A stretch of DNA of 6,773 bases from a virus (taxonomy: Duplodnaviria > Heunggongvirae > Uroviricota > Caudoviricetes): positions 1-6,773 of IMG/VR virus record IMGVR_UViG_2778261086_000001; one strand, given 5' to 3'. Shown one piece after another: positions 1 to 6,773 of the stretch (position 1 is its first letter; each line of letters begins with the position of its first letter). The translations under genes were made by a program, and so were the position numbers. The notes below the pieces were generated by a model. That model was given only the letters and a program-made list of their open reading frames with translations. It made no database searches and had not been told where the DNA came from.

Positions 1-117
1 ATTATATCGAATGTGATTACAATCGGTGGCGGCGGCACAGTTGGTGTGGCGGCCTCAGTCCGGAACAATTTGAAAACCAGAACCTCGCTTAGGCCTGTGT
101 CCATATTACGTGGGTAG

Positions 118-645
<528 letters not shown>

Positions 646-827
646 GGTAATATTAAATCGGAACATTTACATCGCGGAATGTAAAATTTAAATAAAAAGG
701 ACTCTTCCATGAGCCAAAATTCCTGAAATCTTAAGGGTAAGATAAAAGGTCTTAATCAGAATGACACGTTTTATTAATAAATAAAGCTATTCTTTCATTG
801 CTGTGTTTTTCTTTACAAAAGTAATCC

Positions 828-856
828 TTGCTATGGGTGGTTAATCATGCGTTAAT
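828..856 (+). promoter_or_regulatory. Putative sigma70 promoter of cspI (TTGCTA-N17-GTTAAT), implying a ~145-nt 5' UTR
   Basis: Hexamers TTGCTA (828-833) and GTTAAT (851-856) with a 17-bp spacer in AT-rich DNA. Resembles the cspA promoter layout (TTGCAT-N17-CTTAAT, from memory). The predicted start near 863 gives the long leader typical of cspA-family genes. By eye only. Confidence 0.3.
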
Positions 857-1007
857 GGTGTTCTGGTTTGTTACAAATTTATCTGAAGCAGTCATTGTTA
901 TAATTTTATTATTTGTACCTCTTGAGATTTCCTTGTTGGTTTTTCTCTCTGATATTTTTTTTCGGACCATTCTGCCCAAGGGCTAATTTCTTCAAAAGGT
1001 AATAATT

Positions 1008-1220
1008 ATGTCTAACAAAATGACTGGTTTAGTGAAATGGTTTAACCCTGAAAAAGGTTTTGGTTTCATCACGCCGAAAGATGGCAGCAAAGATGTGTTT
1101 GTCCATTTCTCAGCAATTCAGAGCAACGATTTCAAAACATTAACTGAGAATCAGGAAGTTGAATTTGGTATTGAGAACGGACCTAAAGGTCCTGCCGCTG
1201 TTCATGTAGTGGCGCTTTGA
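1008..1220 (+). CDS. cspI: Cold-shock protein, CspA family (CspI-like)
   Basis: 70-aa [41 protein letters not shown]... with the RNP1 (KGFGFI) and RNP2 (VFVHF) motifs of the cold-shock domain. The AAAGGTAATA Shine-Dalgarno context resembles cspA. Sequence matches my recollection of K-12 Qin CspI. Confidence 0.9.
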
Positions 1221-1242
1221 GGTAGACAATATTACAAACCAT

Positions 1243-1419
1243 ATTCACTTTAGATGCCCGTGTTGTCATGGTTCCCAGTATAGAACATCATCTTTTGATG
1301 TTTCTGACATGAATCCTTTCGGGGCAAAATGTATCTTTTGTAAATCAATGATGATTACATTTGATAATATTTCACAATACTTAAATGCCAGCCGTCTGTC
1401 GTTGGATTTAAAAAAGTGA
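1243..1419 (+). CDS. Putative zinc-ribbon small protein (CPCC...CIFC); start codon uncertain, no in-frame ATG/GTG/TTG upstream of the first Cys pair
   Basis: Open frame from 1210 to TGA 1417-1419 encoding ...HFRCPCCHGSQYRTSSFDVSDMNPFGAKCIFCKSMMITFDNISQYLNASRLSLDLKK. Two Cys pairs about 22 residues apart suggest a zinc ribbon. The only in-frame ATG (1309) lies after the first Cys pair; ATT at 1243 is used here as a nominal start. An intrinsic terminator follows immediately. Could be a start-codon-mutated pseudogene. Confidence 0.3.
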   Translation: MHFRCPCCHGSQYRTSSFDVSDMNPFGAKCIFCKSMMITFDNISQYLNASRLSLDLKK

Positions 1420-1423
1420 AAAT

Positions 1424-1448
1424 GAAGGCTCCTTCGGGAGCTTTTTTG
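1424..1448 (+). terminator. Rho-independent terminator closing the cspI / micro-ORF transcription unit
   Basis: GC stem GCTCC/GGAGC around a TTCG tetraloop (1428-1441), extendable by A-U pairs, followed by TTTTTT (1442-1447). Confidence 0.5.
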
Positions 1449-1491
1449 CTTGGTGTCTATTCGATGGATACTCACATACTACGGTAACATC

Positions 1492-1722
1492 ATGAAAAAA
1501 ATCATAGTTTTTTTTAACTCTGAACCAGCAGTGGTAGTGCCAGCGATGACTGGAGTTAACACCATCATGCGTGAATATCCAAATGGCGAAAAAACACACC
1601 TTACTGTAATGGCCGCAGGGTTTCCATCTCTGACCGGAGATCATAAAGTCATTTATGTAGCCGCGGATCGACATGTTACTTCAGAAGAAATTCTGGAAGC
1701 AGCAATAAGGCTCTTGAGTTGA
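1492..1722 (+). CDS. Small hypothetical protein of the Qin-type cold-shock cargo cluster (possibly YnfN/YmcE-like)
   Basis: 76-aa ORF MKKIIVFFNSEPAVVVPAMTGVNTIMREYPNGEKTHLTVMAAGFPSLTGDHKVIYVAADRHVTSEEILEAAIRLLS, immediately upstream of gnsB on the same strand. No strong Shine-Dalgarno at 1492. An internal ATG at 1567 (GGAG 11 nt upstream) would give 51 aa. Identity is inferred from position, not from recognised sequence. Confidence 0.5.
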   Translation: MKKIIVFFNSEPAVVVPAMTGVNTIMREYPNGEKTHLTVMAAGFPSLTGDHKVIYVAADRHVTSEEILEAAIRLLS

Positions 1723-1811
1723 TTTGATGCTATTGCATTGATAATTCAGGAAAATTCTCTTTGTCTGTTTGTGTAAAATTTAGACTATCGTATGTTGATT
1801 ATTGCGATGTT

Positions 1812-1846
1812 TCATCTTATCTTTTACACGTTTGCACCATATAATC
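1812..1846 (+). promoter_or_regulatory. Putative promoter upstream of gnsB (consensus -10 TATAAT at 1840-1845)
   Basis: Perfect TATAAT hexamer 48 nt upstream of the gnsB start. No well-spaced -35 (TTTACA at 1823-1828 is only 11 bp away). Weak call. Confidence 0.25.
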
Positions 1847-1893
1847 GACTTACTGTGTAACTGGAAAGTCATAACAGACTAAAAGAGGAAATG

Positions 1894-2067
1894 ATGAATA
1901 TTGAAAACTTAAAAACAAAAGCAGAAGCAGATATTTCTGAATATATAACAAAAAAAATTATTGAACTTAAGAAAAAGACCGGGAAAGAAGTTACCAGTAT
2001 TCAGTTTACCGCACGGGAAAAAATGACGGGTCTTGAAAGCTATGATGTCAAGATTAATTTAATCTGA
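1894..2067 (+). CDS. gnsB: GnsB (GnsA/GnsB family small protein, Qin prophage)
   Basis: 57-aa ORF MNIENLKTKAEADISEYITKKIIELKKKTGKEVTSIQFTAREKMTGLESYDVKINLI with AAGAGG Shine-Dalgarno 5 nt upstream. Matches my recollection of GnsB and closely resembles GnsA. Confidence 0.85.
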   Translation: MNIENLKTKAEADISEYITKKIIELKKKTGKEVTSIQFTAREKMTGLESYDVKINLI

Positions 2068-2093
2068 TGTATTCAATAATAAAATTTATCCAT

Positions 2094-2125
2094 AAACCTC
2101 GTTTTTACGGGGTTTTGTTATATTT
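2094..2125 (+). terminator. Putative intrinsic terminator downstream of gnsB
   Basis: Hairpin AAACCTCG / CGGGGTTT (2094-2101 and 2108-2115) with a 6-nt loop, followed by a T-rich stretch (TGTTATATTT). Confidence 0.4.
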
Positions 2126-2181
2126 GAATGGTTCCGAATATCTAAATCACAATTGTTGATGGTTTTTATTAAACCAATGCA

Positions 2182-2210
2182 GTCCGGCTCAGGAGTGAGA
2201 GAAGCCGGAC
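2182..2210 (-). terminator. Putative intrinsic terminator of the minus-strand ynfO-ydfO unit
   Basis: Perfect 8-bp stem GTCCGGCT / AGCCGGAC (2182-2189 and 2203-2210) directly 3' of the ydfO stop on the minus strand, followed on that strand by a U-containing tract (UGCAUUGGUUUAAU). Confidence 0.35.
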
Positions 2211-2218
2211 GTTATGGT

Positions 2219-2629
2219 TTAGCGTGGTAAGATCTGTGTAGTTTTCTGGATGCTTTCAGTAAATAGTAATGAATTATCAAAGGTATAGTAATATCTTTTT
2301 TGTTCGTGGATATTTGTAACCCACCGAAAAACTCCTGCTTTAGCAAGGTTTCTTCTGTATTCCTGAAATGTGATCTCTCTGGATTTCAGCTTATTAGAGG
2401 TCGTTTCTATAAGATGCCTATCCTTTGAAAATTTGACAGACACAATGTTTTTTAGGCCCTTTAATAACACTGTATTATCATTTTTTAATACAATATGAAC
2501 ATTCTCTGTGGCTAAATAGTAAATGTAATGTGAGACATTGTGACGTTTTAGCTCAGAATAAAACCATTGATAGTTTAAATCGTTTCGAACTTTATCAAAT
2601 ATTTGTTTAAAAATGACTACCTGATCCAT
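2219..2629 (-). CDS. ydfO: DUF1398-family protein (YdfO/YbcV-like prophage protein)
   Basis: Minus-strand [34 protein letters not shown]...QKTTQILPR (136 aa from ATG 2629; the track's extended start at 2644 gives 141 aa). Neither start has a strong Shine-Dalgarno. Matches my recollection of K-12 Qin YdfO; lies in the Rz-cos interval as YbcV does in DLP12. Confidence 0.75.
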
Positions 2630-2686
2630 AGATAAACCGTCCATGTGATATGAGGGGGCGTAGTCTGCACGATTATCTAAATTGCT

Positions 2687-2920
2687 TCAATCTGGTCTGA
2701 CCTGTTTTCTGAGCAATTCAGTAATGTCACTCTTTTCTTTGTTTGCTTCAGAAGAAACTCTTTTTTCTGAGCACAGTCTCCGGCGGCAGGCTTCAATGAC
2801 CCAGGCTGAGAAATTCCCGGACCCTTTTTGCTCAAGAGCGATGTTAATTTGTTCAATCATTTGGTTAGGAAAGCGGATGTTGCGGGTTGTTGTTCTGCGG
2901 GTTCTGTTCTTCGTTGACAT
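2687..2920 (-). CDS. ynfO: Small ribbon-helix-helix-like protein (YnfO/YlcI-like), directly upstream of ydfO on the same strand
   Basis: 77-aa minus-strand ORF MSTKNRTRRTTTRNIRFPNQMIEQINIALEQKGSGNFSAWVIEACRRRL... The pattern of a basic N-terminus, a short strand (RNIRFP), helix, Gly turn and second helix is RHH-like. The antisense + ORF 2682..2948 was rejected. The lambda right end just before cos carries a similar small minus-strand ORF, as far as I recall. Confidence 0.65.
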   Translation of the reverse strand: MSTKNRTRRTTTRNIRFPNQMIEQINIALEQKGSGNFSAWVIEACRRRLCSEKRVSSEANKEKSDITELLRKQVRPD

Positions 2921-3094
2921 GAGGTTGCCCCGTATTCAGTGTCGCTGATTTGTATTGTCTGAAGTTGTTTTTACGTTAAGTTGATGCAGATCAATTAATA
3001 CGATACCTGCGTCATAATTGATTATTTGACGTGGTTTGATGGCCTCCACGCACGTTGTGATATGTAGATGATAATCATTATCACTTTACGGGTC

Positions 3095-3295
3095 CTTTCC
3101 GGTGATCCGACAGGTTACGGGGCGGCGACCTCGCGGGTTTTCGCTATTTATGAAAATTTTCCGGTTTAAGGCGTTTCCGTTCTTCTTCGTCGTAACTTAA
3201 TGTTTTTATTTAAAATACCCCCTAAAAAGAAAGGAAACGACAGGTGCTGAAAACGAACTTTTGGGCCTCTGTCGTTTCCTTTCTCTGTTTTTGGC
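3095..3295. other. Lambdoid cos site: cosQ, cosN (12-nt cohesive end GGGCGGCGACCT at 3120-3131) and cosB with terminase R sites
   Basis: 3090-3119 reads ...GGGTCCTTTCCGGTGATCCGACAGGTTACG (the lambda right end) followed at 3120 by GGGCGGCGACCTCGCGGGTTTTCGCTATTTATGAAAATTTTCCGGTTTAAGGCGTTTCCGTTCTTCTTCG..., which is near-identical to the first ~190 nt of the lambda genome as I remember it, and leads into the Nu1 homolog. Confidence 0.9.
3229..3283. repeat. Perfect 15-bp inverted repeat GAAAGGAAACGACAG / CTGTCGTTTCCTTTC (lambda cosB R2/R1 terminase small-subunit binding sites)
   Basis: 3229-3243 and 3269-3283 are exact reverse complements. A third copy of the CGTTTCC core (R3) lies at about 3172-3183. 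Confidence 0.7.
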
Positions 3296-3308
3296 CGTGG
3301 AATGAACA

Positions 3309-3830
3309 ATGGAAGTCAACAAAAAGCAGCTGGCTGACATTTTCGGTGCGAGTATCCGTACCATTCAGAACTGGCAGGAACAGGGAATGCCCGTTCTGCG
3401 AGGCGGTGGCAAGGGTAATGAGGTGCTTTATGACTCTGCCGCCGTTATAAGATGGTATGCCGAAAGGGATGCTGAAATTGAGAACGAAAAGCTGCGCCGG
3501 GAAGTTGAAGAACTGCGGCGGGCCAGCGAGACAGATCTCCAGCCAGGGACTATTGAGTACGAACGCCATCGACTTACGCGTGCGCAGGCCGACGCACAGG
3601 AGCTGAAAAATGCCAGAGACTCCGCTGAAGTGGTGGAAACCGCATTCTGTACTTTCGTGCTGTCGCGGATCGCAGGTGAAATTGCCAGTATTCTCGACGG
3701 GATCCCCCTGTCGGTGCAGCGGCGTTTTCCGGAACTGGAAAACCGACATGTTGATTTCCTGAAACGGGATATCATCAAAGCCATGAACAAAGCAGCCGCG
3801 CTGGATGAACTGATACAGCATGGACGTTGA
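3309..3830 (+). CDS. nohA: Terminase small subunit Nu1 homolog, C-terminally truncated (NohA/NohQ-like)
   Basis: 173-aa [72 protein letters not shown]... that follows lambda Nu1 (181 aa) closely through residue ~168 and then ends ...ELIQHGR instead of ELIPGLLSEYIEQSG. No terminase large subunit gene follows. Confidence 0.9.
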
Positions 3831-6696
3831 GTACGGTCAGTACAGCGTTATTCTGTTGGTGGAGGGATTCCCGCCGTCACATGCCGGGACCATCACCGTG
3901 TATGAAGATTCTCAACCCGGTACGCTGAATGATTTTCTCGGTGCCATGACGGAGGATGATGCCCGTCCGGAGGCACTGCGTCGTTTTGAACTGATGGTGG
4001 AAGAGGTGGCGCGTAACGCGTCCGTGGTGGCACAGAACACGGCAGCCGCAAAGAAGTCAGCCAGTGATGCCAGCACATCTGCCAGTGAGGCGGCAACCCG
4101 TGCGACTGATGCTGCAGATTCAGCACGTGCAGCCAGCACGTCAGCCGGACAGGCCGCGTCGTCGGCTCAGTCAGCGTCTTCCAGCGCAGGAACGGCATCA
4201 ACAAAGGCCACTGAAGCCTCAAAAAGTGCTGCCGCTGCAGAGTCCTCAAAAAGCGCGGCGGCTACCAGTGCCGGTGCGGCGAAAACGTCAGAAACGAATG
4301 CGGCAGCGTCAGAACAATCAGCCGCCACTTCTGCATCCACCGCGACCACGAAAGCGTCAGAAGCTGCCACCTCAGCCAGGGATGCGTCGGCTTCAAAAGA
4401 GGCGGCAAAATCATCAGAAACGAGCGCAGCCTCGAGCGCCAGTCGTGCAGCCTCCTCGGCAACAGCGGCAGGAACTTCCGCGAAGGCGGCAAAAACGTCC
4501 GAGACGAACGCAAAGTCTTCTGAGACGGCAGCGGGACAGAGTGCCTCCGCAGCAGCAGACTCAAAAACAGCGGCTGCCTCATCTGCCAGCGCCGCGTCAA
4601 CAAATGCCGGGCAGGCCTCAGCCAGTGCCACCGCTGCCGGAAAGTCGGCAGAAAGCGCCGCATCATCCGCTTCAACAGCCACAACGAAGGCTGGCGAAGC
4701 CACTGAACAGGCCACGGTAGCAGCGAGGTCAGCTTCCGCAGCGAAGACATCCGAAACGAACGCGAAAGCGTCGGAAACCAGCGCAGAATCCTCAAAAACG
4801 GCTGCCGCATCGTCAGCCAGTTCGGCGGCGTCATCGGCATCATCGGCGTCTGCTTCAAAAGATGAGGCGACCAGACAGGCGTCAGCAGCGAAGGGCAGCG
4901 CCACGACGGCATCCACGAAGGCGACAGAGGCAGCTGGCAGTGCGACGGCGGCAGCTCAGAGCAAAAGTACGGCGGAATCCGCGGCAACGCGCGCCGAGAC
5001 AGCAGCAAAACGGGCAGAGGATATTGCATCCGCCGTGGCGCTTGAGGATGCGAGCACGACGAAAAAGGGGATAGTACAGCTCAGCAGTGCGACCAACAGT
5101 ACGTCTGAAACGCTGGCGGCAACGCCAAAGGCAGTAAAATCAGCCTATGACAATGCAGAGAAACGTCTGCAGAAAGACCAGAACGGCACTGATATACCCG
5201 ATAAGGGACGCTTCCTGAACAACATTAACGCGGTCAGTAAAATAGACTTTGCTGATAAGCGTGGTATGCGTTATGTGCGGGTTAACGCTCCTGCAGGTGC
5301 AACATCTGGAAAATATTACCCTGTTGTTGTTATGCGTTCTGCTGGCTCAGTAAGCGAACTGGCATCAAGGGTCATTATCACCACGGCAACGCGAACCGCA
5401 GGCGATCCGATGAATAACTGCGAGTTTAACGGATTTGTTATGCCTGGTGGCTGGACTGACAGGGGGCGTTATGCTTATGGAATGTTCTGGCAATATCAAA
5501 ACAATGAACGAGCCATCCACTCAATAATGATGAGTAATAAGGGCGATGATTTGCGCTCTGTGTTCTATGTTGATGGCGCTGCTTTCCCTGTTTTTGCGTT
5601 TATCGAAGATGGCCTGTCAATATCCGCACCTGGTGCTGATCTCGTTGTTAATGATACGACCTATAAGTTTGGGGCAACAAATCCAGCGACTGAATGTATC
5701 GCGGCGGACGTTATCCTTGATTTTAAGAGTGGGCGTGGTTTTTATGAGTCTCATTCGTTAATCGTTAACGATAATTTGTCGTGCAAAAAACTTTTTGCCA
5801 CAGACGAAATTGTAGCGCGTGGTGGTAATCAGATTCGAATGATAGGTGGGGAGTATGGTGCATTATGGCGTAATGATGGCGCTAAAACTTACCTGCTGCT
5901 TACCAATCAAGGTGATGTTTATGGTGGCTGGAATACATTAAGACCGTTTGCTATTGATAACGCAACCGGCGAACTGGTTATTGGAACCAAACTGTCCGCA
6001 AGTCTGAACGGTAATGCATTAACAGCAACAAAGCTGCAAACGCCAAGACTGGTTTCTGGTGTTGAGTTTGATGGTTCCAGAGATATTACTTTAACCGCCG
6101 CGCATGTGGCTGCTTTTGCCAGAAGGGCAACGGATACATATGCCGATGCGGATGGTGGCGTTCCCTGGAATGCCGAATCAGGTGCTTACAATGTCACCCG
6201 CTCTGGCGACAGCTATATTCTGGTTAACTTCTATACCGGAGTCGGAAGTTGCCGGACCTTGCAGATGAAGGCGCATTACAGAAATGGTGGTCTGTTCTAC
6301 CGTTCTTCAAGAGACGGTTATGGTTTTGAGGATGACTGGGCAGAAGTTTATACCTCGAAAAATCTTCCACCAGAAAGCTACCCAGTCGGCGCACCAATCC
6401 CGTGGCCATCAGATACCGTTCCGTCTGGCTATGCCCTGATGCAGGGGCAGACTTTTGACAAATCTGCATACCCGAAACTTGCAGTGGCTTATCCGTCAGG
6501 CGTTATTCCTGATATGCGTGGCTGGACGATTAAGGGCAAGCCCGCCAGTGGTCGTGCCGTATTGTCTCAGGAACAGGACGGCATTAAATCGCACACCCAC
6601 AGCGCCAGCGCATCCAGTACGGATTTGGGGACGAAAACCACATCATCGTTTGATTACGGCACTAAATCCACGAATAACACTGGTGCACATACCCAT
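3820..6696 (+). pseudogene. stf: Side tail fibre gene (lambda Stf / StfQ/StfR family), missing ~50 N-terminal codons through the deletion that fused it to nohA, and cut at the 3' end by IS2
   Basis: Hand translation from ATG 3820 (11 nt overlap with the nohA stop) gives [72 protein letters not shown]..., which aligns with lambda Stf from residue ~51. A long Ala/Ser/Thr-rich repeat shaft follows, then a beta-rich domain (...[21 protein letters not shown]...), then a lambda-like C-terminal region (...[74 protein letters not shown]...TNNTGAHTH). The frame has no stop to the window end but is replaced by IS2 sequence at 6697. Confidence 0.8.
4040..5010 (+). repeat. Degenerate tandem repeats encoding the Ala/Ser/Thr-rich tail-fibre shaft (recurring AAKTSETNA...SASTATTKA units)
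   Basis: Recurrent DNA motifs such as GCGGCAAAAACGTCNGAGACGAANGC at about 4270, 4490 and 4745. High GC and strong codon periodicity generate the long spurious ORFs in other frames and on the opposite strand (4064..4720 +, 4167..4916 -, 4262..5029 -). Confidence 0.5.
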
Positions 6697-6773
6697 TGGA
6701 TTTGCCCCTATATTTCCAGACACCTGTTATCACTTAACCCATTACTGGCCTGCTGCCGCAGATATTCCCGTGG
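6697..6773 (-). mobile_element. IS2 insertion sequence, right inverted repeat and 3' end of orfB (partial; continues beyond the window)
   Basis: TGGATTTGCCCCTATATTTCCAGACACCTGTTATCACTTAACCCATTAC...CCGCAGATATTCCCGTGG matches my recollection of the IS2 terminal inverted repeat and adjoining insD 3' end. It begins abruptly inside the tail-fibre frame. Confidence 0.85.
6708..6773 (-). CDS. insD: IS2 transposase OrfB (InsD), C-terminal 21 codons only (partial at the window edge)
   Basis: Minus-strand translation of 6773..6708 gives ...[21 protein letters not shown] followed by a stop (TAG, complement of 6708-6710), consistent with an IS2 transposase reading into the terminal repeat. Confidence 0.65.

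Follow-up and report, generated by a model that had tools for sequence, protein, structure and literature searches.

A lambda-type cos site in the Qin cryptic prophage of Escherichia coli: a relic that a helper terminase could probably still cleave

Background

What can a phage packaging site still do once the packaging genes of its own prophage have been lost? The question is raised by a stretch of 6,773 nucleotides (hereafter the window) that makes up positions 1 to 6,773 of the IMG/VR virus record IMGVR_UViG_2778261086_000001, assigned to the Caudoviricetes. An initial annotation, made from the letters alone, had noticed in it an apparently intact lambda-type cos site in front of a truncated small-terminase gene, and had supposed that a lambdoid helper supplying terminase could package the adjacent cargo, so that the element might be mobilised as a cos-bearing, satellite-like remnant.

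The way in which lambda is packaged sets the terms in which this idea has to be judged. Once TerL has nicked cosN, terminase remains on the cosB end in the form of Complex I, which docks on a prohead and moves rightwards along the DNA. Packaging stops only when a downstream cosQ-cosN reaches a nearly full head, and transduction of host DNA by a cos phage requires two suitably spaced cos sites. The cos genetics of the Feiss group established that the spacing between cosN and R3 is critical for accurate nicking and that both I2 and this spacing are required, and lambda 48442-178 is the minimal fragment sufficient for cosmid packaging.

The presence of lambda-type cos sites in the defective prophages of K-12 and the packaging of a prophage in trans through a retained cos are both already published. 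A patch of lambda homology in the DLP12 prophage has been described, and it takes in the cos site of lambda (De Paepe et al. 2014, Poteete et al. 2004). Feiss et al. adopted E. coli C as indicator strain because it contains 'no cosN-lambda' and, in contrast to K-12, little DNA of defective lambdoid origin. In E. coli O157 Sakai, the prophage Sp4 is still packaged in spite of a disrupted nu1, which was attributed to the terminase of Sp14, the two cos sequences being nearly identical (Asadulghani et al. 2009). Our literature search returned nothing usable on lambda 'doc' particles or on cos-initiated packaging of an unexcised prophage.

Methods

Lambda (NC_001416), with its two ends joined, served as the reference for aligning the window, and the cos subsites were delimited following the definitions of Feiss et al. 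2015, Sippy/Feiss 2016 and Murialdo & Feiss 2022. Eight phages were used for the comparison of cosB (PhiR26_1, PhiR49_1, PhiR34_1, PhiR42_1, Kati, 2H10, an Stx1a phage and PhiR29_1). Window genes were taken from the list of open reading frames (ORFs) together with annotation transfer and Pfam profile matches.

Identity of the locus

By sequence identity and gene order, the locus is the Qin cryptic (defective lambdoid) prophage of E. coli. Window positions 123-3816 are 99.84% identical over 3,694 bp to the Qin prophage of K-12 MG1655 (NC_000913) and 100% identical to that of E. coli 1303, and positions 123-6696 match E. coli G4/9 (NZ_CP060073), the closest complete genome, in a single piece at 100% identity. 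Qin is flanked by rspB and ydfJ in both G4/9 (where ydfJ is truncated) and K-12, and the copy of strain 1303 is likewise located at the rspB-ydfJ locus. The window and K-12 Qin have in common the gene order rzpQ-cspI-ynfN-gnsB-ydfO-ynfO-cos-nohA-stf, in which small cold-shock-associated genes come after cspI and are followed by gnsB and ydfO; the coordinates are collected in Table 1. The Qin prophage of G4/9 is approximately 26 kb long and has annotated integrase and excisionase genes. Replication genes are absent from the window ORFs and Pfam matches, and the annotation of the complete G4/9 Qin lists none either. The window proteins share 98-100% identity with proteins already annotated.

The window fragment is flanked by IS3 and IS2-like insertions, unlike K-12 Qin. 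Its first 122 bases match copies annotated 'IS3-like element IS3 family transposase' and finish ...GGGTAGGATCA at position 122, the insertion point being the rrrQ/rzpQ boundary of Qin. The other end carries, within stf, a terminal repeat which we take to be the IS2 inverted repeat. Neither of the two IS/Qin junctions is present in 5426 complete E. coli genomes, in which both window ends were searched with BLAST, and the IS3/Qin junction has no exact match in the one-genome-per-species (GTDB representative) collection. The window probably represents a complete short-read contig ending in repeats, derived from an IS-rich and so far unsampled strain.

Table 1. Features of the window, with coordinates counted from its first base
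Feature	Position	Strand	Remarks
IS3 element end (terminal 122 bp)	1-122		Homology to the Qin of other strains begins at 123
rzpQ	148-645		ORF list, annotation transfer
cspI	1008-1220		ORF list, annotation transfer
ydfO		-	Left of cos
ynfO (DUF3950)	2687-2920	-	Final gene left of cos
cosQ (GGGTCCT)	3090-3096	+	Lambda 48473-48479; packaging-termination signal
cosN, 12-nt cohesive end (GGGCGGCGACCT)	3120-3131	+	Flanks identical to lambda; sole copy in the window
I2 spacer	3137-3169	+	Lambda bp 18-50; contains the essential bp 30-35
cosB R3	3169-3184	+	Lambda bp 50-65; critical TerS-binding site; bp 55-63 as in lambda
R3-R2 interval with predicted IHF site I1	3185-3227		Best IHF-consensus matches at 3193-3210, minus strand
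cosB R2	3228-3243	-	Exact 16-bp inverted copy of R1; identical to lambda
cosB R1 (CTGTCGTTTCCTTTCT)	3269-3284	+	Identical to lambda
nohA start codon (ATG)	3309	+	Position equivalent to the lambda Nu1 start
nohA, Nu1 (TerS) homologue, 173 aa	3309-3830	+	
Deletion junction (3-bp 'TAC' microhomology)	3814-3816	+	nu1 codon 169 joined to stf at about codon 50
stf (stfQ-like side-tail-fibre gene), 5'-truncated	3820-6696	+	3' end cut by an IS element
IS3-family element end, inserted in stf	6697-6773		Matches annotated 'IS3 family transposase'

Structure of the cos site

The alignment places a full lambda-type cos at window positions 3090-3284, inside a longer block of homology (window 2758-3816) that spans lambda 48141 to 698 across the cohesive ends with 97.8% identity and that includes 408 bp with zero mismatches (2784-3191). 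The joined lambda ends, bp 48502 and bp 1, align with window 3119 and 3120 respectively. For each of cosQ, cosN, I2, R3, R2 and R1, identity to the lambda counterpart is 100%, cosQ being also invariant across the 10 lambda-like cos sites that were aligned, and the order, orientation and spacing of cosQ-cosN-I2-cosB (R3, a predicted I1, R2 and R1) are those of lambda. From window 3132 to 3184 (lambda 13-65), there is no substitution or indel, and the distance between cosN and cosB is kept. The 98-nt lambda string that extends from cosQ to R3 has one match in the window, with 0 mismatches, and 0 matches in 200 shuffles, so that chance is excluded and the resemblance reflects homology. The predicted nicks fall between 3119 and 3120 on the top strand and between 3131 and 3132 on the bottom strand.

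The initial annotation had described cosQ, cosN and the three R sites of cosB as intact and near-identical to lambda, and the alignment bears this out, with 0 mismatches in cosN and the R sites; the DNA end that it had anticipated at 3119/3120 is exactly the top-strand nick position, at the lambda 48502/1 boundary. It had drawn the site from 3095 to 3295, where a cos is indeed present, but cosQ begins at 3090, 5 bp before that start.

Just left of cos, lambda 48141-48303 shares with the window the 5' portion of ynfO, the homology to lambda starting inside ynfO at window 2758. NC_001416 annotates no gene at 48141-48303, and the alignment suggests that lambda has a remnant or unannotated ynfO-like ORF.

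Differences from lambda in cosB

Within cosB, the window departs from lambda at 8 places, corresponding to lambda bp 73, 102, 105, 134, 138 (a 1-bp deletion), 139, 145 and 176. All of them lie between or after the R sites, and none falls in an R site or in the IHF-consensus matches. The substitutions closest to the predicted I1 are found at window 3192 (just left of the interval of these matches), 3221 and 3224, and leave the consensus matches unchanged. Seven of the 8 differences also occur in viable lambda-like phages among the 8 that were aligned, those at 3192 and 3221 included. The remaining one is a G>A change at window 3224 (lambda 105), 4 bp away from R2, which neither lambda nor K-12 Qin nor any of the 8 aligned phages shows. 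The spacer between R2 and R1 has 1 bp fewer than in lambda, and K-12 Qin and all 8 other aligned phages share this shorter form.

Two positions, lambda bp 73 and 138, set laboratory lambda apart from the rest: all 8 other phages and Qin have a G at 73 and are without the extra G at 138.

In K-12 (NC_000913), the Qin cosN lies at approximately 1,636,545-1,636,556 on the minus strand. The R3 of K-12 Qin carries a change (lambda 54 G>A) that is also found in the viable phage PhiR42_1, whereas the R3 of the window is wild type. This change is therefore a natural polymorphism, possibly swapped between phage and cryptic prophage. Judged by sequence, the window cos resembles lambda no less than the cos of K-12 Qin does. 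A lambda-type terminase acting in trans should recognise it, because cosQ, cosN, bp 30-35 of I2, the cosN-cosB spacing and bp 56, 58 and 59 of R3 are all identical to lambda. As the window has no A gene, its cos can work only with a terminase supplied in this manner.

nohA, the deletion junction and the stf remnant

The gene following cos, nohA, keeps 169 of the 181 codons of lambda nu1, and residues 1-169 of its product are 98% identical to lambda Nu1 (165/169), in a region that includes the recognition helix (residues 17-24) and the wing (31-39). The Pfam Phage_Nu1 model is fully covered by NohA. The final 12 residues of Nu1, which belong to the TerL-binding C-terminal region, are replaced by QHGR.

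The truncation coincides with the junction at which nu1 has been joined to stf; the three bases 'TAC' found there correspond both to lambda 696-698 and to lambda 19794-19796. In the Qin of strain 1303, nohA is full-length; fragments of A, E, FI, FII and Z come next, and then an intact stf. Compared with this copy, the window shows one clean deletion of 2,830 bp that takes out these five gene fragments and that is shared, among the complete genomes, with G4/9 only. A single 19-kb deletion from a lambda-like ancestor was considered and rejected, since the 1303 intermediate differs from the window by one 2,830-bp deletion. In the extracted 1303 locus, the deleted segment lies at 6694-9525. The 3' end of nohA varies between strains (189 aa in K-12, 181 aa in strain 1303 and 173 aa in the window), and the nohA-stf junction of K-12 differs from that of the window. 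Taken from these sequence comparisons, the picture of the Qin late region is one of stepwise neutral decay.

The stf remnant aligns with the phage_tail_N profile starting at position 51, and its G4/9 homologue is annotated as a pseudogene without N-terminus. It is far longer than the 320-aa StfQ of K-12. Between approximately 4000 and 5000, it contains a long, internally repetitive segment rich in Ala, Ser and Thr, which gives rise to several long spurious ORFs in other frames.

The initial annotation had regarded Nu1 as truncated, and this is correct, although the truncation is a mild one. Its statement that no large terminase, head or tail genes follow holds for A, for the head genes and for the tail-shaft genes; it does not hold for stf, which follows directly. 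The intact lambda-type cos that it had recognised is confirmed, at the level of the sequence, as one of lambda specificity in a defective prophage without gpA and head genes.

Discussion

We consider it quite probable that the window cos is a relic of Qin, left behind by stepwise deletions, which a helper terminase could probably still cleave, thereby promoting recombination, and that it is not a satellite. The deletions would have emptied the whole interval from the 3' end of nu1 to the side-tail-fibre gene, cos surviving as a by-product. A helper terminase of lambda specificity, provided by an infecting or co-resident phage, would bind R3, I1 and R2 together with IHF, would nick cosN at the two predicted positions and would then stay on the cosB/nohA side. 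In the resulting double-strand break, the unprotected left end, on the side of ynfO, would be recombinogenic and would favour the swapping of Qin late-region genes with incoming lambdoid phages. Hybrids of the lambda-qin and 434B types, as well as the cos-proximal DLP12 junctions, could be products of such events. Qin was reportedly defined through the lambda hybrid qin111, and these hybrids are said to have carried DNA of the Qin late region. The Q-lysis region of phage 434B came from DLP12. At most, rightward packaging might start from the window cos without proper termination, because no second cos lies at a head-filling distance in the closest complete genome. That the window cos is actually cleaved, with these consequences, is something that we infer from its sequence, and the site has no demonstrated host function.

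The argument for a recombination hotspot is made by analogy and stems from DLP12, not from Qin. In the study of De Paepe et al. 2014, 10 of the 19 junctions of lambda x DLP12 recombinants immediately adjoin cos, which these authors read as the outcome of terminase-made breaks whose left side is recombinogenic and whose right side is shielded by the bound terminase; their Qin assay relied on tfaQ, not on cos.

The proposal that the element is a cos-bearing, satellite-like remnant, whose adjacent cargo a helper lambdoid phage would package into infectious particles, is not new and seems to us distinctly improbable. It can appeal to a cos that is intact by sequence, to the E. coli PICIs that lambda and phi80 move via their cos sites, to the precedent of Sp4, probably packaged by the Sp14 terminase through a common cos, and to the annotated integrase and excisionase genes retained in the G4/9 homologue. 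The direction of packaging, however, speaks against it: since terminase stays on the cosB end, the packaged DNA would consist of nohA, the stf remnant, the IS element and DNA further right, and rightward packaging leaves cspI, gnsB, ydfO and ynfO on the wrong (left) side of the cut. Termination requires a second cos, yet the window holds a single cosN where a cos-type satellite should offer two cos sites, and no cosN, even with one mismatch allowed, was found within approximately 60 kb downstream in G4/9. With no replication genes, concatemers carrying cos sites one unit apart are not expected. The size of the element is also unsuited to a lambda head: lambda packages roughly 78-105% of 48.5 kb, and the G4/9 Qin would represent approximately 54% of the lambda genome as a monomer and 108% as a dimer, both outside these limits. 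In the genome from which the window derives, the fragment has been further broken by two IS elements. Nor does anything point to a redirection of the PICI type, as no Rpp-type or capsid-redirecting gene was recognised among the window genes, in particular no Rpp gene after cos, cosB is of the plain lambda kind and nohA is a decayed phage nu1. Finally, when the DNA of lambda particles from a K-12 lysogen was sequenced, the host reads lay 'almost exclusively' at lambda, within approximately 25 kb on either side. The particle reads are public (PRJEB33536). This lysogen carries the cos sites of both Qin and DLP12, and no cryptic-prophage cos signal was reported; such coverage means that packaging from the cryptic-prophage sites must be rare, although the authors made no specific search there.

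The same virion DNA, essentially devoid of host DNA beyond the lambda flanks, would also fit a cos that looks intact and is no longer used, either because the 3224 G>A change or the non-concatemeric chromosomal context blocks terminase, and whose retention has no biological consequence. The visible decay of the prophage, with nested deletions and IS insertions, and the one substitution (3224) that none of the aligned phages carries can be read in this direction. We nevertheless hold an inert fossil to be rather unlikely, given that every genetically important position is wild type, that the minimal lambda fragment mentioned above, whose window equivalent is 3059-3296, is enough for cosmid packaging and that the cryptic DLP12 cos appears to be used as a site of breakage and recombination during lambda infection. 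As for a domesticated module, in which the orphan cos and a NohA deprived of gpA would hinder superinfecting lambda-type phages by titrating their terminase or by forming defective TerS hetero-oligomers, we find it scarcely credible. NohA does retain an intact DNA-binding and oligomerisation region while missing the last 12 residues of the TerL-binding region, and E. coli strains very commonly carry lambda-type cos and noh genes; but this prevalence is explained equally well by lambdoid prophages being abundant and often recombining, the strain-variable 3' end of nohA resembles neutral decay, and no published phenotype was found. Satellite mobilisation and a domesticated decoy are thus both unlikely, and the interpretation given by the initial annotation is, overall, partly supported.

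From lambda, the window differs by the 8 cosB changes outside the R sites, by a nu1 without its last 12 codons and by the absence of A. The Qin of K-12, with its nohA region (nohA/nohQ, the DLP12 counterpart being nohD), agrees with the window in gene order and in sequence identity, and differs by its nohA-stf junction, by the 54 G>A change in R3 and by a much shorter stf remnant. The PICIs (EcCICFT073) and SaPIbov5 resemble the window in having cosQ and cosN of the helper type and in lacking terminase, head and tail genes of their own, and they depend on the helper terminase. Unlike the window, PICIs possess an integrase, a regulation that responds to the helper, a replication origin with replication genes, and a distinct cosB that is read through Rpp; their replication leads to concatemers with regularly spaced cos sites, whereas the window is a decayed prophage and not a dedicated satellite. 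Sp4 of O157 Sakai is, like the window element, a defective lambdoid prophage that has kept cos without a functional terminase. It is, however, near full-length, has replication functions, and is excised and amplified, being co-amplified by the neighbouring Sp5, whereas the window element is a short, IS-broken remnant without a replication module.

If the window cos is cleaved, it would mark the point at which a helper terminase breaks the chromosome and where the Qin late genes most readily recombine into lambdoid phages. The genes exposed to such an exchange would be the cold-shock and other accessory 'moron' genes together with the lysis genes. The route of phage mosaicism involved is already recognised and is not new.

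Distribution of lambda-type cos sites in E. coli

A wider role for sites of this kind can be imagined, in which orphan E. coli cos sites beside a near-full-length noh would be used as launch sites for the unidirectional packaging of the flanking chromosome, or would act with NohA as a decoy against lambda-type terminases; we give this idea a very slim chance. If it were true, packaging initiated at the G4/9 cos would run towards ydfJ and marRAB and would be the counterpart, for a cos phage, of lateral transduction.

The majority of E. coli hosts have a lambda-type cos, a point of importance for cosmid and lambda-packaging genetics. A 231-bp cos segment has matches in 4592 of the 5426 complete E. 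coli genomes (85%), and at least 80% of the segment is covered in 3983 of them. The number of lambda-type cos sites per complete genome has a median of 2 and a maximum of 8, and 37 of the places are on plasmids. These segments usually lie under genes annotated nohA or nohD.
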